From assembly GCA_001823605.1 (NCBI GenBank), contig MHUZ01000012.1, forward strand, positions 1 to 32,370: a stretch of 32,370 nucleotides of DNA, in the 5' to 3' direction. The first letter of the stretch is position 1, and each line of letters starts with the position of its first letter. Of this stretch, positions 2,261 through 24,774 are shown in pieces. Position numbers and translations under genes: made by a program. The notes beneath the pieces were generated by a model. It saw nothing but the letters and a program-made list of their open reading frames with translations, ran no database searches and was not told where the DNA came from. This DNA is from Candidatus Yonathbacteria bacterium RIFOXYD1_FULL_52_36. GTDB taxonomy: Bacteria > Patescibacteriota > Minisyncoccia > Phycocordibacterales > UBA1539_B.

Positions 2261-3700
2261 TTAATCCTCTGGTGTCACCGTGATCGTTGCCGAGGCGCTG
2301 CGTCCGCTCCCTGCTCCGGTGAACGTGTACGTGTATGTTCCCGGGGTATTTGATACGGACATTGATCCCGTCGAGAAGTTGCCACCACCATCGGCGTGCA
2401 CGGTCTTAAGCGTCACACCGCCGCTCGCAACCGTTACATTTTCCTCACGGCCAAAGTTGTGGCCCAAGAAGTTGATGCTTCTCCCCGCCTCAACGGTCTC
2501 GCCATTTTGATCGATGGCTGCGGGTGATGTAGGAGTGTAGGGCGGATATACGGAGCCGCCGTTATTATTACCCCCTCCACCTCCTCCGCCATTTGCAATG
2601 AGTTGCTGGATGAGCACCATCAGTTCGGCAATCTTTTGCCACAACCGATTGATCTCTGCCTGAATCGCCGCAAGGTCAGGTGTCGTGGTTGCAGTACTTG
2701 TCGTCATGAATGTCTGATCGGTCGATGTCGCCATGTTCCCTGCCGCATCAGCGGACAGTACCTGAAAATGGTACGTCGTGTTTGATGCAAGACCCGAGAG
2801 TGCGGTCGAGTGACTGGTCATGAGCGTGCTGTCGAGCGTGCTTGATGCGGTGTATGTAGAGGTGGTGCCATACCGCACTTGCATCGTAGTCGGTTCATTG
2901 GTCATCCATGAGATCGTTGCTCCCGTCGTTGATGCCATTGCAGCGATCGACGAAATCGTTGGCGCTGTGGCGTCAGTACTCGTGCTCGTCGTGGTCATGA
3001 ACATTTGATCGGTTGACGTCGCCGTATTCCCTACTGCGTCAGCAGATCGTGCTTGGAAGTGGTACGTCGTGTTGGGCGACAGGCCCGAGAGCATGACCGT
3101 GTGACTGGTCATGAGCGTGCTGTCGAGCGTGCTCGATGCGGTGTATGCAGAGGTGGTGCCATACGAGACCTGCATCGTAGTTGGCTCATTGGTCATCCAC
3201 GAGATCGTCGCGCTGGTGGTCGTGGCACTTGCCGTAAGTGCTGAGATCACGGGCGCAGTGGTGTCGGTGGTGGTAGACGCCATGGTCGTAAAGGTCTGGT
3301 CTGCAGATGTCGTGGTCGCGGTTGATGTGCCGGCAGAACGCACCTGGAAGTGGTAGAGCGTGTTAGCAACAAGCCCCGAGAGCGTCGCCATATGGCTTGT
3401 GGTGGTCGCCGGATTATATGCAGACCACGTTCCATACGCCGTGGTCGTACCGTATGCCACTTGCGATGTCGCACCAATGTCCGTCATCCACGTAATGTTT
3501 GCCGTGGTCGGGGTCGTGCTTGTTGCAACGATACTCGACACGACCGGCGATGTTGTCGCTGTCTGCGCATTCGCTCGATCCGCCTGAACAAGTAATAGTC
3601 CGCCCAAAAACAAAGCCTCAAGAATTCCTACCGCGAGAATTCCCGCGGCGCGTGCCCGCAATGGAGTGCCCATTGTTGGGGTGTTCATTAGTGTATTCAT
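2261..3700 (-). CDS. N-terminally anchored surface protein with three Fn3/PAP-N-like repeats, a coiled segment, a poly-Gly/Asn linker and a C-terminal Ig-like domain
   Basis: 479-aa ORF. N-terminal TM/signal anchor (AAGILAVGILEALFLGGLLLV). Three repeats of the type ATISWMTNEPTTMQV.YGTTS.YTASSTLDSTLMTSH...LSGL..NTTYHFQ..SADA.GN.ATSTDQ.FMTT. Then LAAIQAEINRLWQKIAELMVLIQQLIANGGGGGGGNNNGG. Confidence 0.85.
   Translation of the reverse strand: MNTLMNTPTMGTPLRARAAGILAVGILEALFLGGLLLVQADRANAQTATTSPVVSSIVATSTTPTTANITWMTDIGATSQVAYGTTTAYGTWSAYNPATTTSHMATLSGLVANTLYHFQVRSAGTSTATTTSADQTFTTMASTTTDTTAPVISALTASATTTSATISWMTNEPTTMQVSYGTTSAYTASSTLDSTLMTSHTVMLSGLSPNTTYHFQARSADAVGNTATSTDQMFMTTTSTSTDATAPTISSIAAMASTTGATISWMTNEPTTMQVRYGTTSTYTASSTLDSTLMTSHSTALSGLASNTTYHFQVLSADAAGNMATSTDQTFMTTSTATTTPDLAAIQAEINRLWQKIAELMVLIQQLIANGGGGGGGNNNGGSVYPPYTPTSPAAIDQNGETVEAGRSINFLGHNFGREENVTVASGGVTLKTVHADGGGNFSTGSMSVSNTPGTYTYTFTGAGSGRSASATITVTPED
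2765..3540 (-). repeat. Tandem ~291-nt intragenic repeats (two near-identical copies plus one diverged copy)
   Basis: 2811-2870 and 3101-3160 are almost identical (gactggtcatgagcgtgctgtcgagcgtgct.gatgcggtgtatg.agaggtggtgccat). Shadow ORFs at 2820 and 3111 start with the same 12 residues. A third, diverged unit extends to about 3540. Confidence 0.8.
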
Positions 3701-3997: not shown

Positions 3998-4537
3998 ATG
4001 ATCACCCAAAGACGCATATTCTGGGCAGTGCTGTTCACGCTCGTACTACTGATGAACCTGCTCGGCGCCACCCCGGAAAAACTCCCCGCTGCGGAAGATC
4101 GAGGGAATGCTCTCGAACTCTCCCGTGAAACTGCCACCACAACCGAAGCGCTCGTGGTGCGCGTGATCGACGGCGATACGATCGAGATCGAGGGCGGTGA
4201 GCGCGTACGCTACATCGGCATCGACACACCAGAGCTTCACCACGGAAATCAGGATCTTGAATGCTTTGGAGAGGAAGCAAAAAATCAGAACGAGCAATTG
4301 GTGCTCGGGAAACGCGTCACCTTGGTGCGCGATGTGAGCAATCGCGACAAGTACGGTCGCCTACTTCGGTATGTATTCGTGGGCGACACCTTTGTGAACG
4401 GAGTACTTGTGCAAAATGGTTTTGCACACTCGGCGAGTTATCCGCCGGATATTTCTCGCCAAGAAGAATTGCGCGAGGCGGAACGCCAAGCACGCACCAA
4501 CGCACGCGGACTCTGGAGCGCCTGTTCCCAAACATAA
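3998..4537 (+). CDS. Exported/membrane-anchored thermonuclease (staphylococcal nuclease fold)
   Basis: 179-aa ORF. N-terminal hydrophobic anchor (IFWAVLFTLVLLMNLL). SNase motifs VIDGDTIEI, RVRYIGIDTPE, YGRLLRYVF, LVQNGFA. Confidence 0.85.
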   Translation: MITQRRIFWAVLFTLVLLMNLLGATPEKLPAAEDRGNALELSRETATTTEALVVRVIDGDTIEIEGGERVRYIGIDTPELHHGNQDLECFGEEAKNQNEQLVLGKRVTLVRDVSNRDKYGRLLRYVFVGDTFVNGVLVQNGFAHSASYPPDISRQEELREAERQARTNARGLWSACSQT

Positions 4538-5713: not shown

Positions 5714-6943
5714 ATGGACGGATTCTTTTACCTCATCAAGTACGTACTCCTGCAGGGCTTCGGACTCTTTATCGCGCTCCTTGCCGGAGCAGTATTTACG
5801 TACATCGTCCTCCGCAAGCTTCATTCCAGAAAAACCGCGATCCTCTTGTTCGTTCTTTTCTTTGGCATCTTCTTGTTCCTCTACGCTCCGCGCGCCTTCC
5901 CCAACCAGCTCCAGTACCCCTTTGGGCTCACAACCTATGGTCCCGCAGACTCTCCTGCGCTTCCTCTCAAGAACGTCTACACTTTTTTCAGTAAGCTTGA
6001 TCAGTTCGAACGCATTCCCGACATCGCACGCGACCCTAACGACATTCCTCCGCCCATCACGCGCACCGAGAACGAAACCGTAGAGATCACCATGACTGCA
6101 AAAGAAGTCATTGCTGAAATGGCGCCGGGTGTCGTGATGAACTACTGGACCTACGATGGACGAGTTCCCGGACCGTTCGTCCGCATTCTTGAAGGCGATA
6201 CCGTACACTTCACACTCAAGAACGATCCGACAAGTATTCATCGCCACAATATTGACCTCCACGCCGTAACCGGTCCCGGTGGCGGTGCTGTTGCAACAAA
6301 CGTCGCACCGGGAGAATCAAAAACATTCACCTTCAAAGCCCTCAACCCCGGACTCTATGTTTATCACTGTGCGCACCCAAATGTCGGCAATCATATGGCA
6401 CACGGCATGTATGGGCTCATCCTCGTTCAGCCAAAAAATATCGCTGATCTTCCCGCCGTCGACAAAGAATTCTATGTGATGCAGGGGGAGTTCTACCCCA
6501 AGGGCACCATCGGCACAAAAGGACTTCAGGTAATGGACGCTCAGAAGTTCCTCGACGGAAAGCCGGAGTACATCGTCTTCAACGGCAAGATCGGTGGCGC
6601 TGTAGGTAAGATGGAAGCGAAAACTGGTGAGACGGTACGCGTGTATGTTGGCAATGGTGGCGTGAATCTCATCTCATCGTTCCACGCCATTGGCGAGATA
6701 TTCGATCGCGTCTTCCCCGAAGGAGCGATCGGCTCCGCACCGCACCAGAACGTGCAGACCACGCTCGTCCCAGCAGGAGGAGCGACGATCGTCGACTTTG
6801 CACTCCAGGTTCCCGGAACATTTATTTTCGTTGATCACGCACTCGCCCGCCTTGATCGTGGAGCATATGGAAATCTCAAAGTCACCGGCGATCCTGACCT
6901 TTCGGTATTCGACGGAGAGATCTCTTCAGGCGGCGGACATTAA
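5714..6943 (+). CDS. nirK: Copper-containing nitrite reductase (NirK) with a two-helix N-terminal membrane anchor
   Basis: 409-aa ORF. Cu-ligand motifs HRHNIDLHAVTGPGGG (T1/T2 His), YVYHCAHPNVGNHMAHGMYG (His-Cys...His...Met) and SSFHAIGEIFD. Residues about 10-60 form two hydrophobic helices separated by RKLHSRK. Confidence 0.9.
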   Translation: MDGFFYLIKYVLLQGFGLFIALLAGAVFTYIVLRKLHSRKTAILLFVLFFGIFLFLYAPRAFPNQLQYPFGLTTYGPADSPALPLKNVYTFFSKLDQFERIPDIARDPNDIPPPITRTENETVEITMTAKEVIAEMAPGVVMNYWTYDGRVPGPFVRILEGDTVHFTLKNDPTSIHRHNIDLHAVTGPGGGAVATNVAPGESKTFTFKALNPGLYVYHCAHPNVGNHMAHGMYGLILVQPKNIADLPAVDKEFYVMQGEFYPKGTIGTKGLQVMDAQKFLDGKPEYIVFNGKIGGAVGKMEAKTGETVRVYVGNGGVNLISSFHAIGEIFDRVFPEGAIGSAPHQNVQTTLVPAGGATIVDFALQVPGTFIFVDHALARLDRGAYGNLKVTGDPDLSVFDGEISSGGGH

Positions 6944-6956
6944 TTCTTAAACCTTT

Positions 6957-8354
6957 ATGCTTACCCAAGAACTCATCGAGTACATTCGCCAGGCACAAAA
7001 TGCCGGTATGACCCCGGAACAGATCCGCAAAGCGCTTGCCGAAAGCGGCTGGGCTGAGGCCGATATCACCCAAGCGCTCTCCGCGATGAACGCCGCGTTT
7101 GATTCCGGTCGTGCAGATCGCATTGCGGCAAGTGTCACCCCTGCTACCGCAACGACATCAAACAACCTCTCTCCGACAACAGAATCTTCCCCTCCTGCCG
7201 TACGTGAGCCCATCATTCAAAATGAAAACCCCATCGACGCTACGCCACCAGAAACTCGTGCCCCCCACAAGCGCACTGCACTCATTGTTACACTCCTTGT
7301 GCTCGGGCTCATCATACTCGGTGGTGCATACGTCGCCTATGCGATCTATGCACAAACACCAGGTGCAATGCTTTCGCGCGCCGAAGACAACGCCTCTTCA
7401 ACGCATACGTATGTAAGTGACATCTTTATGGGAGTATCCGCCAAAGAAACCGGGCAGTATTCATCGGCACAGCCAATGACCGCTTCATTCTCGCTTAACG
7501 CGCGCTCAGAGGAAGACCTTCGCGATACGGCAAATCCAAAAATGCACGCGACGGCAACACTTACAGGAAACTTCGGCGGCGTGAGTGCTTCAGGAGATCT
7601 CGAGGCTACACTCTTGGAGAAAACTTTTTTTATCCGCATAAAAGACCTTCCTGCATTCGTTGCCGCCATTGATGCCGACTTCGCTGCATATATCCGTGGC
7701 AGATGGTTCTCGATCGATGCGCAAAAATTTCCCGACGGCTTGCGCGCGCTTGGTGCATCAGAAGACGATGTCACTGAGACACGTGCATGGCTTACTGAAA
7801 CGCTCACGTTCAAAAACCGATACATGAGCCTATCGCAGACCCTTACGGATTTTCTTGCACTCACCAAACCCGAAAGCCCTATTGCCGGGTTCTCCCTCAA
7901 GGAAACCGGTGAAACGATCATTGGAGATGAGAGCACCCGCTCCTACTTCGTGAGCGGTACCAAGGAGGCATGGATCGCTCTCGCCGAAGAAGGCGCAAAA
8001 ACTCGGCCGGAGGTGGAGCGTACCGCCATTGAAAGATCTATCGCAGAACTGCGCAACAACACAACAGCTAAAGATCTTGCCTTGGCAGTAACATTCTGGG
8101 TGGGCAAAGAATCTCATATGCTCCGAAAATACGAGGTGGTGGTTTCCGGGATAGAACAAAGAGAAGCATCTAACGGACTCCGGCCTGAGAGCACTCCGTT
8201 ATCAGTTGAATTCACCTTCCGTTTTTCAGAGATCTTCAGTGCATTCAACGAACCTGTTACGGTCATTCGTCCCGACCCCGCAACGCCGCTCATCGAAGTT
8301 CTCGAGCAGGCACAGCGCACGGTACTTGATCAGTCAACGGGTGCACCGCGTTAA
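6957..8354 (+). CDS. Hypothetical single-pass membrane protein, probably co-transcribed with nirK
   Basis: 465-aa ORF starting 13 nt after the nirK stop. N-terminal helical module LIEYIRQAQNAGMTPEQIRKALAESGWAEADITQAL, a Pro/Thr/Ser linker, a TM helix (ALIVTLLVLGLIILGGAYVAYAIYA), then a roughly 330-aa extracytoplasmic domain with no motif I recognise. Confidence 0.75.
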   Translation: MLTQELIEYIRQAQNAGMTPEQIRKALAESGWAEADITQALSAMNAAFDSGRADRIAASVTPATATTSNNLSPTTESSPPAVREPIIQNENPIDATPPETRAPHKRTALIVTLLVLGLIILGGAYVAYAIYAQTPGAMLSRAEDNASSTHTYVSDIFMGVSAKETGQYSSAQPMTASFSLNARSEEDLRDTANPKMHATATLTGNFGGVSASGDLEATLLEKTFFIRIKDLPAFVAAIDADFAAYIRGRWFSIDAQKFPDGLRALGASEDDVTETRAWLTETLTFKNRYMSLSQTLTDFLALTKPESPIAGFSLKETGETIIGDESTRSYFVSGTKEAWIALAEEGAKTRPEVERTAIERSIAELRNNTTAKDLALAVTFWVGKESHMLRKYEVVVSGIEQREASNGLRPESTPLSVEFTFRFSEIFSAFNEPVTVIRPDPATPLIEVLEQAQRTVLDQSTGAPR

Positions 8355-16578: not shown

Positions 16579-19008
16579 TTACTGGATCGTCTGTGAGTGG
16601 CGACGCTCCTCATAGATCCTGCGTCGTGAATTCTGGATCGAGACGATCAAGAATACAATGATGAGGATGAGGATGAGCAAGATGAACCACTCGATCACGG
16701 TGTCCGGAAAGAATCCGAGCCCGATGAGACTTGCGCTGAGTGCGTTTGCGCGACCATCGGTCACGGTGTGGATCGCATAAGCGATCGCATCACCCTGCGT
16801 GTTCGTGCGCGTGTCGGTGTACACCAGGACCACGCTCGTCACCAACACTTTGCCAATCGCCGTGTCGGGAAGCACACATGCTTCCACGGTCACCTCGCCC
16901 GTTGCTCCCGGCAAAAGTTCGCCGAGCACCACGGTGAGGATATTTTCTTTCGTTGAGAAACTGCCGCGTGATGAACCAAGGTACTGCATTTCTTGCGGAA
17001 GCATTACGCGAAGCACTGAGTCAGTGAGACGTACGTTTCCTTTGTTCTCGTAGCGGATCACATACGTGATGCAATCATTTACGAATACCTGTTCGCGGAG
17101 TCCGATGATCGAGATCTCGATCGGTGATGTTACGCCCGTTCCTACGGTGCGTACAATGACCTGCGGCTCACGAATGGTGATGACGCGCGGTGGCTCTTGT
17201 ACAATAACCGGCGGCTGATAGATCACGGTCTGTCCTGATGTCGTGAACGAGAGTACTGATCCGCGACTCGTACCATACGAGTTCTGCGCAACAGCGCGGA
17301 AGTAGTACGTGGTGTTCGGAGCAAGACCGGTGATGGTTTCCGAGAACGCGATCGATGACTGCGTACCGATGTAGCGCGACGGCGTCGTGTTGCCGAGAAG
17401 TCCTGAGGTTACACCCCACTCGAACCATGCGTTCGTTGAAATGTTGCCGGTGATAAGTGCCAAGCCGTTGAGCTTGCCTGATGTCTGAGTGACGGTCGTC
17501 GCAAGGTTCGTTATCGCGGTCGGGGTAGTCCCCTGTCCATACCCGCTGCCCGTAGTGAAGGATAGTGTACTTCCGTATGCCGTACCGTACGAGTTCTGCG
17601 CGGCTGCGCGGAAGTAGTACGTAGTGTTCGGCTGAAGACCTGAGATCGTTTCACTGAAGTCTCCTGCGTACGATCCTTGCGTGATACGCGTTGTCTGGTT
17701 GCCCAAACTGTACGATGTACCCCACTCGAACCAACGCGTTGTGTTGTATGAGTATCCGCCGTATGAAACGTTCGGATTCACATAACCGTTCAACGTTGCA
17801 TAGTTCTCACTGATGTTTGTTGCTGGCTTCGTTGTTACTCCAGGCGCCTGGTTTGCACCTCCGCCTGTCGTCGTGAAACTAAGAACACTGCCATACACCG
17901 TGCCGGCCGAGTTTTGCGCGGCTGCGCGGAAGTAGTACGTGGTGTTCGGAGCCAACCCAGATACAGACGAACTGAATTCTCCGTCGTATGACTGATTGAA
18001 GCGTGTCGTCTGATTGCCGAGAGAGTATGACGTCCCCCACTCGAACCAGCGCGTTACATCGCTCGTGCTGTTGGTCGTAAGGTACCCGCGAAGCGTTGCG
18101 GAATTTTCAAGAATGTTCGTGGCTGGATTCGTGGTAACTGACGGAAGTTGATTGTATGAACCGCCCGTCGTAGTGAAGCTCATGATCGAGCCGTACGCCA
18201 TGGTACCGGCCGAGTTTTGCGCAACAGCGCGGTAGTGATATGTCGTGTTTGGCGCAAGACCCGAGAGGTATTTGCTGAAGGCTCCAGATGAGTACTGCGA
18301 GGTGTGGGTCGTCTCACTTCCCAGCGAAGACGATGTCCCCCACTCGAACCAACGCTGCGTATTGTTGGTGTCAGTCGTGAGGTGTCCATTGAGTGTCGCG
18401 GAGTAAGTGTCGATGTTCGTGGCAGCATTGGTCGTTACGGAAAGTGTTCCACCCGATGAAGCATTCCCTACCAAGAAGTGTACGACGAGCGAACCTTGCG
18501 TTGCCCATCCGCACTCGATGTTGCCGATATTGACCCCGGTTGTGAAAAGTTCTTCACCGGTCTGTCCCTGCGGAAGCGACGTAACGCTTCCCTGCTGGTT
18601 CGGATACCAATACACGCGTCCCGGAATAAAGGTGAGCGTCTGTGAGCTCGAGAGTGTCACAGATGCATTTCCGTGTACCGAAGATGCATTGTCCGCAGAA
18701 ACGGTCGCGGTGAATGAATGCGTGGTGCCGTTTCCGGTCGTGCGCGGCGAAAGTTTGATGCGCACGTTTTGTGCGGTCGGATCCGTGGTGTTGTGATAAT
18801 AGACACTGAGCGCAACCACCTGCCCTGCGCTTGCAGACGTCGAAGATGACCAGCTGGTGGTCGATCCCGGGTTCTGTGTGTAGTTCGCGGCACGAAGCGT
18901 GGCGAAGTCTTGCGGGTCGTTGTTGAGCGACGCAGCAAATGCACCCTGCGGGAAAAATACCGCAAGGGAAAGGAAGACCGCTCCGACTGATTTAATAATT
19001 TTTTTCAT
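16579..19008 (-). CDS. Large cell-surface protein: signal peptide, N-terminal beta-sandwich-like domain, four RWFEWG-type Fn3-like repeats, DUF11-like domain, C-terminal TM anchor
   Basis: 809 aa. Signal peptide ends AFA. Four repeats ..ATNI.E..ATLNGY.....RWFEWGTSYSLGN.TT......F...ISGLAPNTTYYFRA.AQNS.GT.YGS.LSFTT. C-terminal WFILLILILIIVFLIVSI followed by a basic tail. Confidence 0.88.
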   Translation of the reverse strand: MKKIIKSVGAVFLSLAVFFPQGAFAASLNNDPQDFATLRAANYTQNPGSTTSWSSSTSASAGQVVALSVYYHNTTDPTAQNVRIKLSPRTTGNGTTHSFTATVSADNASSVHGNASVTLSSSQTLTFIPGRVYWYPNQQGSVTSLPQGQTGEELFTTGVNIGNIECGWATQGSLVVHFLVGNASSGGTLSVTTNAATNIDTYSATLNGHLTTDTNNTQRWFEWGTSSSLGSETTHTSQYSSGAFSKYLSGLAPNTTYHYRAVAQNSAGTMAYGSIMSFTTTGGSYNQLPSVTTNPATNILENSATLRGYLTTNSTSDVTRWFEWGTSYSLGNQTTRFNQSYDGEFSSSVSGLAPNTTYYFRAAAQNSAGTVYGSVLSFTTTGGGANQAPGVTTKPATNISENYATLNGYVNPNVSYGGYSYNTTRWFEWGTSYSLGNQTTRITQGSYAGDFSETISGLQPNTTYYFRAAAQNSYGTAYGSTLSFTTGSGYGQGTTPTAITNLATTVTQTSGKLNGLALITGNISTNAWFEWGVTSGLLGNTTPSRYIGTQSSIAFSETITGLAPNTTYYFRAVAQNSYGTSRGSVLSFTTSGQTVIYQPPVIVQEPPRVITIREPQVIVRTVGTGVTSPIEISIIGLREQVFVNDCITYVIRYENKGNVRLTDSVLRVMLPQEMQYLGSSRGSFSTKENILTVVLGELLPGATGEVTVEACVLPDTAIGKVLVTSVVLVYTDTRTNTQGDAIAYAIHTVTDGRANALSASLIGLGFFPDTVIEWFILLILILIIVFLIVSIQNSRRRIYEERRHSQTIQ
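17239..18444 (-). repeat. Four tandem ~300-nt intragenic repeats encoding the Fn3-like units
   Basis: Protein residues about 189-590. Recurring strings on the plus strand include gcgcggaagtagtacgt.gtgttcgg and cccactcgaaccа-type motifs (ccactcgaacca). Confidence 0.75.
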
Positions 19009-19133
19009 ACGACAGTTCTAAAACTTAATAAATTGCCTACTCATCTTTAAACCTTCAACACGACGGGGTTGAAGACTTAAGAATGAGCACCGAGCGAACG
19101 AACGTGAAGTTCGTTGCTCGATGCCAAATGGTG

Positions 19134-20267
19134 CTACTGCCACCCAGTTGATATTTCGCGCGGATGGCCGAAGTAATCACACCCCGCACCGACGCATTCA
19201 CTACTACCTGTTGGTGGACTCCTCGGATACCCAGGATTGTTGCAGTTGTTACCCACACAATCATCAGGACCAGTCGGCGGATCTGCCGGTCTGCCACCGC
19301 CACCGCAATTACGGCACGGGGGTGGAGGAGACGGTGGTCGATGGCGAGGACGATTGTTCCATTGACGGTTGTCGACATTGATTCGATGATCGTCACGATA
19401 ACTGCGGTGATCATCATAAGATCGACGATTGTCGTAACGGCGGTTGTCCCGAGAGCTATAGTCATTAAAGCTCCCGTTAATGCTGTGATCGTCGGAATAA
19501 TAGCGATCGCCGCTAAAACCGACGCCCACACCATACGCAACACCGGCAACATCTAACCCGCCATAGTACTCGTCGTACACCGGCTCACTCTCGACATAGA
19601 CCGGACGGTCTATGTACACCGGTCTTTCCACAACCTGTACCTCTGTACGGTACTCAACGCGTGGAGCCGGTGCGGTTTCTCTCATTCCATCATCCCGACT
19701 ACGTAAGTCGGCAATAGGATTGAGACACCACAGCGATCCAATATACGCACCCTCAAACAGTAGTGCGTCCTCCGTGCTCCCACTAGTGTGGGTGTATGGA
19801 TGGCGGGTAATTTCCTTGAAGCCGCCATTTGGACACACGCCGTCGGTAGAGATCTCACCCTTGCGCCACGAAGCCTTTACGACCTGCGCGGCGTTAATCG
19901 CATCGATCACCATCGCATCGGTGACCTCGCGACCGAACGTGCGAGACATCGCATTCCGATAGCGCGCCATCTTTTCGGGGCTACCTTGCAGCAGAGCAAT
20001 GAGCTCCGCCTTCGAGTAGGGGTTCCCCATTTTATACGGCGCGAACGGCTGAGCCTTCGTTTTCGGACAATCGTCCTGCATGGTGTGTGTAATCGGAACC
20101 GGCTCCCGTACTTCGGGACTGATCGCAACAGCACGGTCATTCACAGGAGCAACAACGTTTGTGCTCCTGTAGACTACCGGCTCGCGAGCATGATACCCAT
20201 ACGGTGTTGCACACCCCGTGAGCACCAATGCCAGAAATCCTAGCGCTACTATCCTGTAAAAGAACAT
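19134..20267 (-). CDS. Lipoprotein with a globular middle domain and an Arg/Asp/Tyr/Asn/Pro-rich, Cys-pair-containing tail
   Basis: 377 aa. Lipobox LVLTGC. GGAGG lies 5 nt before the ATG. Tail reads ...SRDNRRYDNRRSYDDHRSYRDDHRINVDNRQWNNRPRHRPPSPPPPCRNCGGGGRPADPPTGPDDCVGNNCNNPGYPRSPPTGSSECVGAGC.... Confidence 0.8.
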   Translation of the reverse strand: MFFYRIVALGFLALVLTGCATPYGYHAREPVVYRSTNVVAPVNDRAVAISPEVREPVPITHTMQDDCPKTKAQPFAPYKMGNPYSKAELIALLQGSPEKMARYRNAMSRTFGREVTDAMVIDAINAAQVVKASWRKGEISTDGVCPNGGFKEITRHPYTHTSGSTEDALLFEGAYIGSLWCLNPIADLRSRDDGMRETAPAPRVEYRTEVQVVERPVYIDRPVYVESEPVYDEYYGGLDVAGVAYGVGVGFSGDRYYSDDHSINGSFNDYSSRDNRRYDNRRSYDDHRSYRDDHRINVDNRQWNNRPRHRPPSPPPPCRNCGGGGRPADPPTGPDDCVGNNCNNPGYPRSPPTGSSECVGAGCDYFGHPREISTGWQ

Positions 20268-20355
20268 GGGACCTCCTTCCGGCTCCTCGCCGGTCTATAA
20301 TCATGAAAACCTATTGAAAGGGAACAACTGATGAAGCAAGTCCTTATTTATTAGT

Positions 20356-20384
20356 ATTATATCACTTCCACAAAAAAAAGTCAA
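20356..20384 (-). promoter_or_regulatory. Consensus promoter for the 19134-20267 lipoprotein gene
   Basis: Minus strand: TTGACT, 17 nt, TATAAT. The -35 is embedded in the upstream gene's terminator. Predicted 5' UTR is about 80 nt. Confidence 0.6.
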
Positions 20385-20407
20385 CCCCTTGGGGCTGACT
20401 TTTTTTA
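20372..20407 (-). terminator. Terminator after the 20444-21172 gene
   Basis: aaaaaaaagtcaacccc-tt-ggggctgacttttttt (one A-C mismatch). Confidence 0.65.
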
Positions 20408-20443
20408 TACCTAAAAATTAGACTTTTACCTGCGCTGGTAACG

Positions 20444-21172
20444 CTATGCGATCACCATTCCGCCTTCTTCGCGCTTCCTTCGTGAAGCTTCATGTGCGGC
20501 GCTTATGTTCATGAACGCAGCGGCGATGGCAAGTGCGATTGCAACGAGGATCAGAAATATCGTAAGTCCTCCAACTCCACCGTCGCTCTGTGCGGCATTC
20601 GCCGTGAGTGCGCCGGCACTCACACTTGCGGTGGTTGTGGCGCAGTCATCGTCTTTGTCAGTCGAGACGGCGGTCGTCTTTGTGGTCGTAGTTTTTGATG
20701 ATGCGGTTGAAGATGTTTTTGCGGCAGTAGCAGTTTGCGTGCTTCCGACCGCTGAAGGAGTATTGCTGTTTTGGGTTGCGGTGCTTACTACCGGCGCACT
20801 CTTTGTCGTGAATGAGAGCGTTTCACCATAGCGGGTCTCACCCTTGCCGATCACCGCGATACGATAGTAGTACCGTGTGCCCTTCTTAAGGCCGGTGAGG
20901 TTTTTGCTCTCGTTGTATTCATCCCAATATGTTTCAGATTGAGTTTGCTCGCCGAACGCCAATGTCTCACCCCACTCAAACCAAACGGTGGTTTTTTCCC
21001 AAGGAGCAAGGGCTGCATACCCGTTCAATTGCGCCCCTGTTTCAGTGATGTTCGTTGCGGGCATGGTCGTTGCAGTAAGGGTAGCAGTTGTCTCTGCCAA
21101 CGATACATGCGGAATAAGCGCAGCAAAAAGCACTGCGGCGATCAATGATTTAAATGTAAGTGTGTAATTCAT
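20444..21172 (-). CDS. Type I membrane-anchored surface protein with one RWFEWG-type Fn3-like domain and a Ser/Thr-rich stalk
   Basis: Start chosen at MNYTLTFKSLIAAVLFAALIPHVSLA (signal peptide). Domain ATNITETGAQLNGY...VWFEWGETLAFGEQT...LTGLKKGTRYYYRIAV...YGETLSFTT. T/S/A-rich linker and C-terminal TM plus basic tail. Track ORF extends to 21280. Confidence 0.8.
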   Translation of the reverse strand: MNYTLTFKSLIAAVLFAALIPHVSLAETTATLTATTMPATNITETGAQLNGYAALAPWEKTTVWFEWGETLAFGEQTQSETYWDEYNESKNLTGLKKGTRYYYRIAVIGKGETRYGETLSFTTKSAPVVSTATQNSNTPSAVGSTQTATAAKTSSTASSKTTTTKTTAVSTDKDDDCATTTASVSAGALTANAAQSDGGVGGLTIFLILVAIALAIAAAFMNISAAHEASRRKREEGGMVIA

Positions 21173-21215
21173 ATAGAGGTTTTGGGCTGACCAAGCACTG
21201 ATCAATAATGTATAT

Positions 21216-21244
21216 ATAGTACCATATATATAATATTTTGTCAA
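21216..21244 (-). promoter_or_regulatory. Consensus promoter for the 20444-21172 gene
   Basis: Minus strand: TTGACA (21244-21239), 17 nt, TACTAT (21221-21216). Confidence 0.6.
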
Positions 21245-21249
21245 GCAAA

Positions 21250-21286
21250 TAAAAAGGGCGTGGAGGTTTGATCCTCTCACGCCCTT
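21250..21286 (-). terminator. Terminator after the 21302-21745 gene
   Basis: Minus strand: agggcgtgagagg-atcaaa-cctccacgccc followed by ttttt. Confidence 0.65.
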
Positions 21287-21301
21287 TGGACTGCTTTGGC
21301 C

Positions 21302-21745
21302 TTAATCGCGATAATACCGCGCCTCTGGCCGCCATGGGTCATACTTTGGACGATAGTAGCCCGGGGCGACCTCTTGGCAGTCAAAGTTACGAGTCTCCCG
21401 GCAACGGTAACCATCATCATAGTAGTCGCCGTTGTCGTCGTAGTAACGGTCATCACGATACTGCGGCCGACCTTGGTACTGTTGACCGCCACCGCCTCTT
21501 GCTACGCGACTGATTGACTGGGTGTTTTGAGTAACCCCATTCAGAGCCATCATCGCACCCGCGCCAATTCCCGCAGCGCGCCCACTATCGCCGATGAGCA
21601 AGCCGGATATTCCGCCCACAATTGCGGCATTGGTATACCCTTGGATACTTCCCCGGGGATCGCCACGATAGCCATTCGGAGTGGCACAACCACTAAGAAC
21701 TGCTGTCATCACGACTAAAAACATTAACCCTTTTAACGTTTTCAT
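21302..21745 (-). CDS. Glycine-zipper lipoprotein with an Arg/Tyr/Asp-rich tail
   Basis: Start at MKTLKG (GAGGAG 6 nt upstream). Lipobox VLSGC. Glycine-zipper segment AAIVGGISGLLIGDSGRAAGIGAGAMMALNG. Tail GGGGQQYQGRPQYRDDRYYDDNGDYYDDGYRCRETRNFDCQEVAPGYYRPKYDPWRPEARYYRD. Confidence 0.8.
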   Translation of the reverse strand: MKTLKGLMFLVVMTAVLSGCATPNGYRGDPRGSIQGYTNAAIVGGISGLLIGDSGRAAGIGAGAMMALNGVTQNTQSISRVARGGGGQQYQGRPQYRDDRYYDDNGDYYDDGYRCRETRNFDCQEVAPGYYRPKYDPWRPEARYYRD

Positions 21746-21838
21746 GCTACGCTCCTCGGCCATTTTGGCCAAAAACTGTAAAATATCTTTATCTTGCAAG
21801 GATTTTTTCAAATCATTCAAGAACCTTCATCTGTGTAC

Positions 21839-21867
21839 AGTGTATCACAAATCAATAGAAATGTCAA
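21839..21867 (-). promoter_or_regulatory. Consensus promoter for the 21302-21745 gene; the -35 lies inside a 9-bp palindrome
   Basis: Minus strand: TTGACA (21867-21862), 17 nt, TACACT (21844-21839). gtcaagtgc/gcacttgac inverted repeat at 21863-21889. Confidence 0.6.
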
Positions 21868-21902
21868 GTGCCCCATGCATGCACTTGACCTGATCGTCTT
21901 CC

Positions 21903-21938
21903 AAAAAAATAGGCGTGGGGACAAGATCCCCACGCCTT
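21903..21938 (-). terminator. Terminator after the 21986-22444 gene
   Basis: Minus strand: aaggcgtgggg-atcttg-tccccacgcct followed by attttttt. Confidence 0.7.
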
Positions 21939-21985
21939 ATGTACTGAAAATGATGTGCAATTATTATGTACTACGCGAGGCGTTG

Positions 21986-22444
21986 TTACCAGTACCATCC
22001 ACCATAGTGCTCTTGTCGTGGTGCCCATGGGTCATAGACTGGCCGGTATCGGCCGGGGGAGTATTCGTGGTAGTAGCCACTATTGGTTTCCCAATTGCCA
22101 CGCGGACGGTCACGGTCGTAACCACCATGATGACGGGGCCGATAATGATCATTCCCACCACCCCATCTGTCGTCATAACGAGGTGGTCGACCATAATCGC
22201 GTCCACCACCGCCGCCATGACCAGAACCGCCGCCGTAACCACCACCCGAAGGACCGTTAGGTGGATTCACCGGACCGCCGCCGTAGTTGCCACAATTTTG
22301 ACAACCGCCGCCGTATCCGCTGCCGCCTCGGTCATTACCGCGCCAGTCGTTACCGCCCCAACCTCGCCCTCCTGCTTGCGCAGAAAGTGGGCCGAGTGCA
22401 ATGACCAGTGCAGCAATTACTGCCGCTATTTTGTTGGTTTTCAT
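21986..22444 (-). CDS. Secreted Gly/Arg/Tyr-rich low-complexity protein
   Basis: Start at MKTNKIAAVIAALVIALGPLSAQA (signal peptide, AQA cleavage motif), with AAGGAAGG about 7 nt upstream. The mature 128 aa contain 40 Gly by hand count. Track ORF extends to 22651. Confidence 0.8.
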   Translation of the reverse strand: MKTNKIAAVIAALVIALGPLSAQAGGRGWGGNDWRGNDRGGSGYGGGCQNCGNYGGGPVNPPNGPSGGGYGGGSGHGGGGGRDYGRPPRYDDRWGGGNDHYRPRHHGGYDRDRPRGNWETNSGYYHEYSPGRYRPVYDPWAPRQEHYGGWYW

Positions 22445-22556
22445 ACCACACCTTCCTTTCCCGCCATGCGGGAAGTTTGTTTTGGGGGAATTCCCTAAAA
22501 AGATGTAGTAGATGATGCGCCCGAGGGCGCACTGCCTCTCCGGCAGATCTGACATA

Positions 22557-22585
22557 GTTGTATAACAGAAACGATGAGTTGTCAA
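22557..22585 (-). promoter_or_regulatory. Promoter for the Gly/Arg/Tyr-rich protein gene
   Basis: Minus strand: TTGACA (22585-22580), 17 nt, TACAAC (22562-22557). The predicted 5' UTR of about 105 nt contains three short GC hairpins. Confidence 0.5.
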
Positions 22586-22628
22586 TGAACTGCTCGTTCG
22601 CGTGCCATGATACAATTGCACATACGAT

Positions 22629-24317
22629 ATGCCGCAATTCGACGACCGCAAGCAAGATCAGGACCTCAAAGACATTCGCCTGCGCGAAGAAGAGAGTCTT
22701 GCCGAGCTTCTCTCACACAAGTACGGCATCCCCTATCTCAACACCTCGGGTGTCCCCATCGAAACAGAAGCGGTGGGTCTCATCAAGGAAGACGAAGCGC
22801 GTGCGGCACTTGTCGCTATCTTTTCAACCGGCGAGAACAAACAAGAAAAGGAACTGAATGTTGCCGTTGTTTCTCCTGAGGGCGCTGCCACCAAAGAACT
22901 TCTCGATCGTCTGCGTGAGCAGGGGTATCGCCTTTCCGTATCAATGGCATCGCACGCAAGTCTTGAGCGCGTGTGGGACCGCTACCATGATATTTCAAAC
23001 ACGTCCCGTACCGACGCAGGAGTGCTTGATGTTTCGAGCGAAGAACTCGCACGCCTTTCAGGAAACGTAAAGACAGCAGACGACATCAAGACGCTTTTGG
23101 AAGAGACACTCGCTCAAAAAAACGTGCACCACATCTCAAAAGTGCTCGAGGTGATGCTCGCCGGCGCAATTGCGATCAAGGCTTCCGATATTCACATTGA
23201 GCCGGAAGAAGTGAATGTACGTCTGCGCTATCGTCTTGACGGTGTTCTCCACGACATTGCGATGATCGACCACAAGACGTACAAGCTTGCGCTTTCCCGC
23301 CTAAAATTGCTCTCGGGGCTCAAGCTCAATGTTTCTGCCGACACCCAAGATGGTCGTTTCAGTATTAAATTGGGCGATGTCGACATCGAGATCCGTACCT
23401 CGATCCTTCCTTCTGCGTATGGCGAAGGCATCGTAATGCGTATCTTAAACCCTGAGTCCATCAAGGTGACGCTCGATCAACTGGGTATCGAGCCGACACT
23501 GCTTGAGATCTTGCTTCGCGAGATCACCAAACCGAACGGCATGATCCTCACCACGGGACCAACAGGATCCGGAAAAACCACGACACTCTATGCATTCTTG
23601 CGAAAGATCTACTCGCCTGAGATCAAGGTCGTTACCATCGAAGATCCGATCGAATACCACCTTGCCGGCATCTCGCAGACCCAAGTGAACGAAGGGAGCA
23701 ACTACACGTTCCTCTCAGGGCTCCGCGCAGCACTTCGCCAAGATCCGGACGTTATCATGGTTGGAGAAATTCGTGATAGTGAGACCGCGCAGATCGCGAT
23801 CAACGCATCACTCACGGGACACCTCGTGCTTTCAACACTTCACACCAACAACGCCGCCGGTACGATCCCACGTCTTATTGATCTCAAAGTGAACCCCAAA
23901 GTTATTGGCTCTGCACTTTCGGTCTCGATCGCACAGCGTCTTTTGCGCCGGCTCTGCTCCTCATGCAAAACCGAAAGCACGCCCACTGAAGAAGAGCGTG
24001 CCACGATCGGGCGCATCTTAAAGGGTGTCATGCAGAAAAAAGGAGCAGTGCCCGAAATTGGCAACCTCTCCATTGCAAAGGGGTGTGTGGTCTGTAACGG
24101 ATCAGGATACAAAGGCCGTGTAGGCATTTACGAAGCGATCCTTATTGATGAGGCCATTGAAAAATTGATCGCCGAAAACCCTAGCGAGCGTGAGATCAAA
24201 GAAGCCGCAATCCCCCAGGGTATCCTCGATATGCGCGAAGACGGTATCGTAAAGATCCTTGCGGGCATGACGTCGTTCGAGGAGTTGTCGCGAACAATCG
24301 ATCTGGACGAACGTTAA
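22629..24317 (+). CDS. pilB: Type IV pilus / type II secretion assembly ATPase (PilB/GspE family)
   Basis: 562 aa. Walker A TGPTGSGKTTT, Asp box/Walker B DPDVIMVGEIRD, His box GHLVLSTLHTN, tetracysteine CSSC...CVVC followed by GYKGRVGIYE. Confidence 0.92.
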   Translation: MPQFDDRKQDQDLKDIRLREEESLAELLSHKYGIPYLNTSGVPIETEAVGLIKEDEARAALVAIFSTGENKQEKELNVAVVSPEGAATKELLDRLREQGYRLSVSMASHASLERVWDRYHDISNTSRTDAGVLDVSSEELARLSGNVKTADDIKTLLEETLAQKNVHHISKVLEVMLAGAIAIKASDIHIEPEEVNVRLRYRLDGVLHDIAMIDHKTYKLALSRLKLLSGLKLNVSADTQDGRFSIKLGDVDIEIRTSILPSAYGEGIVMRILNPESIKVTLDQLGIEPTLLEILLREITKPNGMILTTGPTGSGKTTTLYAFLRKIYSPEIKVVTIEDPIEYHLAGISQTQVNEGSNYTFLSGLRAALRQDPDVIMVGEIRDSETAQIAINASLTGHLVLSTLHTNNAAGTIPRLIDLKVNPKVIGSALSVSIAQRLLRRLCSSCKTESTPTEEERATIGRILKGVMQKKGAVPEIGNLSIAKGCVVCNGSGYKGRVGIYEAILIDEAIEKLIAENPSEREIKEAAIPQGILDMREDGIVKILAGMTSFEELSRTIDLDER

Positions 24318-24329
24318 AAATAGAACAGA

Positions 24330-24383
24330 AAAAGGCGCTGAGTTGATGATACTGTGCACAGTATCATCAACTCAGCGCCTTTT
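24330..24383 (+). terminator. 54-nt perfect palindrome (27-nt arms) after pilB
   Basis: aaaaggcgctgagttgatgatactgtg / cacagtatcatcaactcagcgcctttt, starting 13 nt after the pilB stop. Confidence 0.6.
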
Positions 24384-24393
24384 GAATCGAGCA

Positions 24394-24544
24394 CATAAAC
24401 CTCTGAGCGATCCTTTTCATACAAGTACGAAAAGGTAGAGGCCTTTTTAAGGATAACCCCAGAATGATTCTTGCGAACCATCCAGAATGTCCTCAAAAAA
24501 CATCAGTAAGCCCGGGAGGACTTAATCGCTTAGAGGTTTATATG
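24394..24544 (+). ncRNA. Candidate structured RNA (~150 nt, nested hairpins), class unknown
   Basis: Closing stem cataaacctctgagcgat (24394-24411) / atcgcttagaggtttatatg (24525-24544); its one non-Watson-Crick pair is G-U only on the plus strand. Internal hairpins ccttttc/gaaaagg (24412-24435) and gtcctc/gaggac (24489-24521). No convincing ORF. Confidence 0.3.
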
Positions 24545-24706
24545 CTGGATTTCAATGTGCGTACTACCATAAGCAGTGCCGTGCTCCCCGAATTTTCGAA
24601 AAAAGAAACTGCCACCCTATGATGAGGGTGCATCTCTTTTTTTGAGAGGAGCTCCTGACCTACGCGCTTATATTGGTATCTTAGCATAAAAGAAAAATTA
24701 TGTCAA

Positions 24707-24774
24707 CCCCCTCCCCAAAAGGGGCGCGATACCCTCCCTCCACGGTCTCCCATTTCTAGCGTATACTAAGAATC
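24707..24774 (+). promoter_or_regulatory. C-rich element plus leaderless-type promoter of ruvB
   Basis: ccccctccccaaaaggggcgcgataccctccctccacggtctcccatttc, then TATACT (24762-24767), 7 nt, ATG 24775. Confidence 0.45.

Follow-up and report, generated by a model that had tools for sequence, protein, structure and literature searches.

Tyrosine-rich wall layers have analogues in plant glycine-rich wall proteins and in eukaryotic Gly/Tyr-rich structural proteins. CotC and CotU of the Bacillus subtilis spore are tyrosine-rich outer-coat proteins forming high-mass assemblies, and dityrosine links have been documented in spore coats (PMC7944565). Here we describe a block of four minus-strand genes, A to D, together with the gene of an 809-aa surface protein downstream of A, in a 32,370-nt stretch of Candidatus Yonathbacteria bacterium RIFOXYD1_FULL_52_36 (contig MHUZ01000012.1), hereafter the window. 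Products A, C and D resemble CotC, CotU and the Gly/Tyr-rich structural proteins in being small, extracytoplasmic, rich in Tyr and in charged residues or Gly, and almost free of aliphatic residues; the known proteins of this kind assemble into higher-order material. The resemblance is one of composition only: there is no homology, Arg here takes the place of Lys, A, C and D possess conserved linear motifs as well as signal peptides or lipoboxes, and no cross-linking enzyme is evident.

Envelopes of the Candidate Phyla Radiation (CPR)/Patescibacteria are almost uncharacterised, and surface contacts are thought essential to these organisms. Judging from sequence features, the block D-C-B-A and the 809-aa Fn3/CLIPPER protein may constitute a cell-envelope module of an uncultivated, ultra-small Paceibacterota-like (CPR) bacterium, with a matrix or anchoring role, a reading that we hold tentatively, at a little short of an even chance. 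It is the reading that best accommodates the export signals, the purifying selection, the synteny with genes of surface proteins, the linear motifs in common and the conserved aromatic/Gly composition. Each rival explanation explains only part of the observations or conflicts with the comparative composition or the profile tests.

A preliminary description of this DNA had reported the four minus-strand genes. Their coordinates and translations were reproduced exactly, and the codon-position bias of the minus strand described below agrees with their being real. The genes and their parts are as follows:

19134 to 20267, minus strand: gene A, a 377-aa lipoprotein with lipobox ...LVLTG↓C19 (L-T-G-C)
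A (19134 to 20267, minus strand), about aa 63 to 195: orphan N-terminal domain
A, aa 199 to 234: PVY repeats
A, aa 235 to 251: weakly hydrophobic Gly-rich segment
A, aa 252 to 317: Arg/Tyr/Asp/Asn tail
A, aa 318 to 377: Cys/Pro/Gly module with 6 Cys, paired
20444 to 21172, minus strand: gene B, 242 aa, with a signal peptide, one Fn3-like domain and a Thr/Ser-rich linker
B, aa 196 to 227: C-terminal transmembrane (TM) segment (TM scan), followed by a basic tail with last residues GMVIA
21302 to 21745, minus strand: gene C, a 147-aa lipoprotein with lipobox ...AVLSG↓C20 (L-S-G-C20)
C, aa 36 to 72: conserved GxxxG-rich hydrophobic segment; aa 82 to 147: Tyr/Arg/Asp tail
21986 to 22444, minus strand: gene D, a 152-aa secreted Gly/Tyr/Trp/Arg-rich protein carrying both shared motif types
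D, aa 1 to 24: signal peptide with a canonical Sec signal-peptidase I site, AQA↓GG
16579 to 19008, minus strand: large surface protein downstream of A, 809 aa, with a signal peptide, a conserved N-terminal domain, Fn3 repeats and a CLIPPER/DUF11 domain (Pfam)
Large surface protein, aa 761 to 796: C-terminal TM segment (TM scan)

Export or anchoring signals are predicted on all five products, in line with the earlier claim of exported proteins. The signal peptides of A, C and D are of the Sec or lipoprotein type; neither a class III pilin type (G↓[FM]xxxE) nor a G↓FTLxE motif was found in them. In A and C the lipobox [LVI][ASTVI][GAS]C is present at the end of the signal peptide, and no Lgt or LspA gene lies within the 32-kb window. 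Disorder is predicted for the tail of A, where the predicted local distance difference test score (pLDDT) is below 50 in the AF2 model (pLDDT 56 for the full-length A model).

We then compared the block with its relatives, among them locus L014 (85% DNA identity) and loci L011, L012 and L013 (43–48% identity in protein A); orthologs outside the window lineage are marked by a prime. As described previously, the C-terminal halves in the window are poor in aliphatic residues: Ile, Leu, Val and Met (ILVM) amount to 11% in A, 4% in C and 1% in D versus 25% in the housekeeping proteins of the window, and R+Y+D+G to 42%, 57% and 61%, respectively. Across orthologs, aromatic residues make up 16–23% of the C and D tails and 12–18% of the A and A′ tails, ILVM 2–7%, the Cys count is even and net charge ranges from −1 to +4. 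The tails of C and D stay rich in Gly, as do the Cys/Pro/Gly modules of A and A′; with 3–4% Gly, the Arg/Tyr/Asp stretch of A does not share this richness. Charged residues behave differently. R+K goes from 12–20% in the window tails to 4% in C′ and D′ of L011, and D+E from 9–20% to 1–3%, Arg and Asp being replaced there by Gln and Asn (Q+N 16–26%). Thus the conserved features of the tails are aromatics and Gly, few aliphatics, paired Cys and near-zero charge; Arg/Asp richness is lineage-specific.

This result bears on two functions suggested in the preliminary description. The first is extracellular nucleic-acid capture; in the fuller form considered here, RGG/Tyr-rich tails would bind environmental DNA and, with the type IV pilus ATPase and a secreted nuclease, scavenge nucleotides. 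The Arg/Gly/Tyr composition of the window lineage speaks for it, as do a pilB gene divergently adjacent to the block in the window, L011, L019 and L025, and a staphylococcal-nuclease-type (SNase/thermonuclease-like) protein at 3998–4537 (plus strand), plausibly a secreted nuclease for nucleotide scavenging. The tails also share with RGG/FUS-type low-complexity domains, known from eukaryotic RNA-binding proteins, a Gly/Tyr/Arg ‘sticker-spacer’ composition and predicted disorder, the relatives being Gln/Asn/Tyr-rich and ‘prion-like’. Unlike these domains, A, C and D are exported rather than cytoplasmic, and Arg is lost in the orthologs. D contains a single RGG triplet and four RG dipeptides for a net charge of +3 over 128 aa, and the C tail has a net charge of −1; the charge stays near zero because Asp balances Arg, which argues against nucleic-acid binding. 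In addition, the pilB adjacency is matched by an equally conserved TsaE/PolA adjacency and is missing in L020 and L023, and the signal peptides are not of the pilin class. We consider nucleic-acid capture very unlikely.

The second suggestion was of metal-binding proteins; in the form considered here, A, C and D would be metal-binding or redox envelope proteins comparable to RcnB-like proteins or periplasmic metallochaperones, and their CxxC and CxxxxC pairs, with Asp, His and Tyr, would serve to bind Cu, Zn or Ni, or to carry electrons. In its favour, A and its orthologs have invariant CxxC and CxGxNC pairs, D and D′ retain a CQNC/CQGNC Cys pair, His and Asp occur in the window tails, and the window encodes the copper protein NirK. 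But Asp and His are not conserved in the orthologs, paired Cys in exported proteins are more simply explained as disulfides, and NirK lies 12 kb off, behind housekeeping genes. Proteins of the RcnB/YohN type (PF11776) are likewise exported and carry charged low-complexity stretches; no RcnB or other metal-binding Pfam or NCBIfam model matched A, C, D or their orthologs at E≤10. The metal-binding explanation is accordingly judged quite unlikely. Both suggestions are weakened because the Arg, Asp and His richness on which they were based is not conserved in the orthologs.

We examined whether the tails are coding, by the distribution of nucleotide differences over codon positions 1/2/3 of the minus-strand frames. 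Compared with L014, gene C differs by 14/12/61 overall and by 5/9/31 in its tail, B by 16/14/61 and the N-terminal part of A by 10/9/41. Between L011 and L012, the A′ tail differs by 3/4/33, with 31 synonymous versus 6 nonsynonymous codon changes, and the C′ tail by 5/4/38. For D the only usable relative is the distant D′ of L011, and the third-position excess (40/44/75) is weaker than for A–C. Purifying selection thus acts in the minus-strand frame on A, B and C, low-complexity tails included; those of A and C are selected sequence rather than noise.

Expression signals, called as pattern matches only, follow the same strand. They agree with the earlier statement that each gene has its own promoter and terminator, with promoter-like sites for A to D, terminators after D, C and B, and two hairpins downstream of A:

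20384 to 20356, minus strand: promoter-like site of A (11/12 matches plus TG)
21244 to 21216, minus strand: promoter-like site of B
21867 to 21839, minus strand: promoter-like site of C
22585 to 22557, minus strand: promoter-like site of D, TTGACA-17-TATACA, read by eye
21938 to 21903, minus strand: intrinsic-terminator-like hairpin with T-run after D (−23.8 kcal/mol)
21286 to 21247, minus strand: intrinsic-terminator-like hairpin with T-run after C (−22.3 kcal/mol)
20405 to 20372, minus strand: intrinsic-terminator-like hairpin with T-run after B (−19.3 kcal/mol)

These observations weigh on an artefactual explanation, in which the tails would be non-coding or mis-stranded low-complexity DNA and the plus-strand open reading frames (ORFs) the real genes. 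Long stop-free plus-strand ORFs do lie above the low-complexity tails (21794–22498, 19164–19556 and 21296–21517), and in some public assemblies (L001, L006) gene callers annotate a 207-aa antisense ORF in the place of D. Such ORFs are open because of GGN/CGN/TAY/GAY codon usage. The third-position excess sits in the minus-strand frames; the third positions of the antisense ORF 21794–22498 are the first positions of D, the least variable ones, and this antisense frame is broken by a stop in L011. All signal peptides, ribosome-binding sites, promoters and terminators of the block are on the minus strand, and the shared motifs are kept at the protein level by different codons. The artefact is extremely improbable, and the preference given earlier to the minus-strand genes over 21794–22498 holds.

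The 3.7-kb region 19001–22700 is 100% identical in L001–L010, from at least 8 samples of various studies and sources (ENA, JGI, Logan), one contig differing by a single nucleotide polymorphism. Such identity suggests a highly clonal population that has been sampled widely; within-population variation is therefore uninformative on coding.

The three proteins are linked by short motifs, all of which were present as first described. CATPxGY forms the mature N-terminus of both A (A19) and C (C20), C[RQ]NCG..P..PP.GP occurs at A318 and D48, and YRPxYDPWxP at C131 and D133. The internal motifs are located as follows:

22250 to 22303, minus strand: D motif CQNCGNYGGGPVNPPNGP, aa 48 to 65, a CxxCG module with the short linear motif GGPVNPP
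22019 to 22048, minus strand: D motif YRPVYDPWAP, aa 133 to 142, common to C
21326 to 21355, minus strand: C motif YRPKYDPWRP, aa 131 to 140
19266 to 19316, minus strand: A motif CRNCGGGGRPADPPTGP, aa 318 to 334, a degenerate copy of the family motif CHNCGGGGGPVNPPTGP

We assessed chance agreement with composition-preserving shuffles (n=500). The 9/12 identities of the C–D tail motif and the 6/7 identities of the A–C mature N-termini were reached by none of the 500. The 9/18 identities between A and D were reached by 25 of them, a borderline result within the window, and this motif is accepted because it is conserved in relatives. Composition-adjusted BLASTP gave E=3e-6 for C versus D and E=0.031 for A versus D. 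In L011, C′ and D′ matched each other at E=6e-21 (35/53 residues identical) through a common module, TYRPxYYNPQxY...PYYxNG[VI]HYN...CKFAxGQGPxGYxPCPW. Different codons encode 23 of these 35 identical residues, which indicates an old paralogy kept by selection and not recent gene conversion; different codons are likewise used in the lipobox motif of A and C. Recent gene conversion was rejected as the source of the motifs on this ground and for lack of extended nucleotide identity. Tandem-repeat expansion was likewise rejected as an origin for the tails, since the region has a single tandem DNA repeat, a 15-nt, 2.5-copy unit in D (22323–22360) that codes for a WGGND/WRGND pentapeptide.

D has a mosaic structure. 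Its N-terminal CQNCG...GGPVNPPNGP matches the Cys/Gly/Pro module of A-family tails, and its C-terminus carries the C-type YRPxYDPWxP; in L011, the A-type modules of D′ and A′ share a 23-nt stretch of 91% identity. The form in D is an exact GGPVNPP and that in A a degenerate GGRPADPPTGP. The GGPVNPP-type motif was found in 23 of 70 compared proteins, all A-family members or D, and it stands near the C-terminus in wider-family members. This motif is present in relatives, where the preliminary description had proposed to seek the motifs. In about 150 kb of loci GGPVNPP occurs almost only in the A family and D; the sole other match, a looser GPIDPN, lies in the large L024 protein. Paralogs also gain and lose features in step, since two features are each present or absent in both members of a pair: in the window lineage both A and C have the lipobox, which A′ and C′ of the L011 lineage both lack, and an extra Cys-bounded C-terminal module (PYYxNG[VI]HYN...CKFAxGQGPxGYxPCPW) is seen in C′ and D′ (L011 322–789 and 1081–1584) and is absent from window C and D.

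As judged from these comparisons, A, C and D are a modular paralogous set with short conserved islands in fast-evolving tails. The proposal of a modular paralogous family rather than random low complexity is thus borne out by the shuffles (C–D and A–C), the C versus D match and the purifying selection.

Protein B is different in kind. Its Fn3-like domain matched Pfam Pur_ac_phosph_N at 6.3e-5, under the cutoff, and its orthologs are 60–89% identical to it. In these orthologs (window 20444–21172; L011 1719–2474; L019 1529–2392) we observed an internal Cys motif, DDDCATTT (GCATST in L019), kept about 45 aa before the C-terminal TM segment, and an invariant cytoplasmic end GMV[IL]A. The Cys motif resembles the CATPxGY of lipoproteins A and C.

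The gene order pilB, D-C-B-A, large Fn3 protein, TsaE, PolA recurs with variations in relatives, pilB being divergent. L011 has complete D′, C′, B′, A′ and Fn3′ genes with pilB divergent upstream, and partial blocks are found in L012, L013, L014 and L019. D′ of L011 occupies the syntenic position and shows a signal peptide and the motif order of D. In L019, C and D are replaced by a different small Tyr/Arg-rich protein with a signal peptide; in L025, pilB directly adjoins an A-like gene; L020 and L023 have an A-like gene and a big Fn3/CLIPPER protein with no pilB nearby. In L024 the downstream gene encodes a 643-aa protein with the N-terminal domain of the large protein, other repeats and a C-terminal TM segment. 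Overall, in 7 of 8 contexts the A-position gene is immediately followed, in the same orientation, by the gene of a large surface protein with a signal peptide and a C-terminal TM anchor (the pairing is found in the window, L011–L013, L019, L020, L023 and L024, not in L022).

The pilus gene in question is:

22629 to 24317, plus strand: pilB/gspE-type ATPase gene, divergent from D (T2SSE, 4.6e-116)

It is the only pilus gene in the window. Its adjacency in three lineages, all of which also keep TsaE/PolA on the other side, is a matter of general synteny. Thus the robust association is that of the A-position gene with a large TM-anchored surface protein, and in specificity the adjacency of pilB does not exceed that of TsaE/PolA. 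Of the functional link proposed at the outset, the part concerning Fn3 surface proteins has the support of synteny and of this pairing, and the part concerning the pilus ATPase is weakened by this lack of specificity and by the absence of pilB in L020 and L023.

We searched for relatives of A with a profile built from A and its orthologs P0002–P0004. A itself aligned with homologs at E=6e-26 to 6e-15 (35–45% identity) over its C-terminal 31–43%. At E<1e-3 this A-family profile retrieved 64 representatives, and in each the match fell in a domain of about 115 aa, LP[MF]xKxP...CPxG...RxFxxGExC[LF]xDxN...SxxCGN; the sole named member is HXF43976.1, a ‘hypothetical protein’ of Candidatus Paceibacterota. 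The domain is modelled by AlphaFold with a pLDDT of 95.9, and it found no fold match in PDB or BFVD (viral) and no Pfam or NCBIfam model. Its carriers at the compared loci are:

L011, 2643 to 3614
L012 and L013
L019, 2544 to 3413
L020, 5784 to 6569
L023, 4461 to 5186
L024, 609 to 1424

Window A is not among them. An initial assignment of window A to the 64-representative domain family was withdrawn after direct tests: a profile of 51 family domains scored −1.5 bits against it in hmmsearch (E=0.15, Z=1), hhalign gave a probability of 0.5%, and the head of window A agrees with the family domain only at CPxG, EITR, S..C.N and in the predicted helix/strand order. Similarities lie elsewhere. Window A and the A′-type family have in common the position upstream of a large Fn3/CLIPPER protein, the signal-peptide N-region, a middle region PRVEYR...PVY...EYYGGLD and the tail islands GDRYY.DDHS.NGSFNDYS and CxxCGGGG.P..PPxGP..C.G.NC. 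They differ in that window A has a lipobox and has GGRPADPP in place of GGPVNPP, that family tails are hypervariable and that the N-terminal domains are not detectably homologous. Since N-region, middle, tail and position are all that is shared, A is an ortholog by position whose head domain has either been replaced or diverged to an extreme degree.

In family members, hypervariable linkers and tails, which may be collagen-like or rich in Cys or Pro, go with a hydrophobic segment rich in Gly/Ala; the genes usually stand upstream of one for a large surface protein. Collagen-like GPP repeats were seen in the tails of P0012, P0015, P0017, P0026, P0036 and P0043, and several members have a beta-strand-like C-terminus, x[VI]x[VI]x[IV]R or FGLQLRF.

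Further searches extended this picture only slightly. From C and D, only near-identical or 79%-identical copies were recovered. A scan of a genome collection gave nothing with the A profile and only distant Fn3 matches with the B profile, two of them in Paceibacterota metagenome-assembled genomes; metagenome scans gave no locus with profile A1 and 3 loci with A6, A5 being too divergent for use. The placement of the bacterium as Paceibacterota-like relies on its named relatives, all of which are Candidatus Paceibacterota metagenome-assembled genomes. Models of RcnB, Gly-zipper, BA14K and PXPV showed no significant match to A, C, D or their orthologs, including the RcnB-like and glycine-zipper models named in the preliminary description. 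The literature holds no record of the GGPVNPP motif in our search, and a search on CPR surface proteins returned nothing relevant. These sequence comparisons place A, C and D in no described family, and their relatives amount to a handful of metagenomic sequences; the earlier reader had not recognised a characterised family either.

How might such a module be built? In the envelope reading, A and C would be tethered by their N-terminal lipid on the outer face of the cytoplasmic membrane, C being held further by its GxxxG-rich, hairpin-like segment, and their aromatic/Gly-rich, aliphatic-free, net-neutral tails would extend into the wall zone. D would be secreted and would join A-type (CxxCG...GGPVNPPxGP) and C-type (YRPxY[DY]xP) modules; because both are on one protein, it could bridge A-type and C-type partners. 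The conserved islands may act as docking motifs, to each other or to the co-encoded surface proteins, the Tyr/Trp-rich spacers as multivalent ‘stickers’ giving cohesion, and the paired cysteines would probably form disulfide loops. The combined effect could be a cohesive layer of protein, formed or anchored by this set, that surrounds or underlies the Fn3 surface proteins.

Several observations count against this scheme. Lipid tethering is not conserved, as the orthologs of A and C in the L011 lineage have no lipobox. D versus D′ was not significant in composition-adjusted BLASTP, and the orthology of D therefore relies on synteny, signal peptide and motif order. The topology of GGPVNPP is also conflicting: in distant members (P0016, P0024, P0030) the motif follows a true TM-like segment and would be cytoplasmic, whereas in D it follows a cleavable signal peptide and must be extracytoplasmic. 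Finally, independent support from known proteins was not obtained: scanning A, C, D, their orthologs and family members against Pfam and NCBIfam yielded no significant match, the domain and C profiles found nothing among PDB sequences, and Foldseek with the full-length A model and the family-domain model against PDB and BFVD gave no match at E≤0.001, all TM-scores being below 0.3.

A related explanation takes A, C and D as covalently cross-linked Tyr-rich wall or coat proteins, with tails that would be joined oxidatively, through dityrosine and disulfide bonds, to give an insoluble layer. The Tyr+Trp content (16–23%) and Gly richness kept in the C and D orthologs, Cys always in pairs and the precedent of Tyr-rich coat assembly by CotC and CotU (PMC7944565) are consistent with this, as against the want of sequence homology to coat proteins and the conserved linear motifs, which it leaves unexplained. 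Nor is there a peroxidase or laccase nearby. A multicopper oxidase was considered as Tyr cross-linker and rejected, the only multicopper protein of the window being NirK (TIGR02376). We regard cross-linked coat proteins as unlikely.

Protein C invites another comparison, with the glycine-zipper outer-membrane lipoproteins SlyB/Pcp, YfgH and the Rickettsia 17-kDa antigen, as a small lipoprotein with a GxxxG-rich hydrophobic segment just past the lipid anchor; the biology of SlyB and YfgH is described in bioRxiv 10.64898/2025.12.22.696046. Accordingly, C, and possibly the hydrophobic Gly-rich segment of A, might be a glycine zipper of the SlyB/YfgH type, oligomerising in the membrane and stabilising lipid/protein nanodomains, with the tails as accessories. 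Residues 40–63 of C (AIVGGISGLLIGDSGRAAGIGAGA) show a GxxxGxxxG pattern within a hydrophobic segment of about 30 aa, followed by GxGxG, near-invariant in orthologs; between L011 and L012 this Gly-rich segment has 0 nonsynonymous and 9 synonymous changes and is the most conserved part of C. Faint matches to YiaD, CmpA and Gly-zipper models were obtained. They are far from the cutoffs: C′ of L011 scored 7.8 and 8.0 bits against 24.2 and 28.9 for PF05433 and PF13441, C itself had no match at E≤10, and PDB sequences contained no SlyB match. The organism is probably monoderm, with no outer membrane, and C has a long Tyr-rich disordered tail that the known proteins lack. The zipper also leaves D, the tails and the shared motifs unexplained, and we find it unlikely.

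That a CPR genome should encode low-complexity surface proteins and lipoproteins peculiar to its lineage is no surprise to specialists. Less ordinary are the selection on extracytoplasmic disordered tails, the private motif ‘wiring’ of three genes and the associated unmatched domain family. The block itself is a compact, syntenic group of surface genes whose tails carry lineage-private, docking-like motifs. A bolder version of the envelope-matrix reading, which we consider doubtful, would have the envelope of ultra-small Paceibacterota partly built from exported, disordered, aromatic-rich ‘sticker-spacer’ proteins wired by GGPVNPPxGP, CxxCG and YRPxY[DY]xP, with D as a bifunctional bridge linking A-type and C-type partners and the Fn3/CLIPPER proteins; the product would be an extracellular condensate-like or cross-linked matrix, a prokaryotic, extracytoplasmic counterpart of eukaryotic low-complexity-domain assemblies. 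If the tails do form a cohesive or cross-linked layer, this would be a new bacterial way to build extracytoplasmic material, and the motifs and the A-family domain would then serve to trace such layers among further uncultivated lineages. Should the tails be no more than spacers, specific to the lineage, on ordinary surface proteins, the result is a useful annotation and little more.

The rest of the window is a housekeeping stretch encoding PolA, TsaE, RuvA, RuvB and RuvC, a Mur ligase, a class A penicillin-binding protein, tyrosyl-tRNA synthetase, tRNAs and NirK. The last, a copper-containing nitrite reductase (5714–6943, plus strand), scored 314 bits with TIGR02376, above the cutoff, and has an N-terminal hydrophobic extension; it is followed by a gene for a 465-aa protein with a TM segment and no assigned identity (6957–8354). 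Between pilB and ruvB lies a 457-nt gap (24318–24774), in which Rfam at the gathering threshold gave no match and no long ORF is present; a 52-aa gene is called there in some assemblies. A second surface protein of 479 aa is encoded at 2261–3700 (minus strand) and shows an N-terminal TM/signal segment, three Fn3 repeats, a coiled segment and poly-Gly/Asn.

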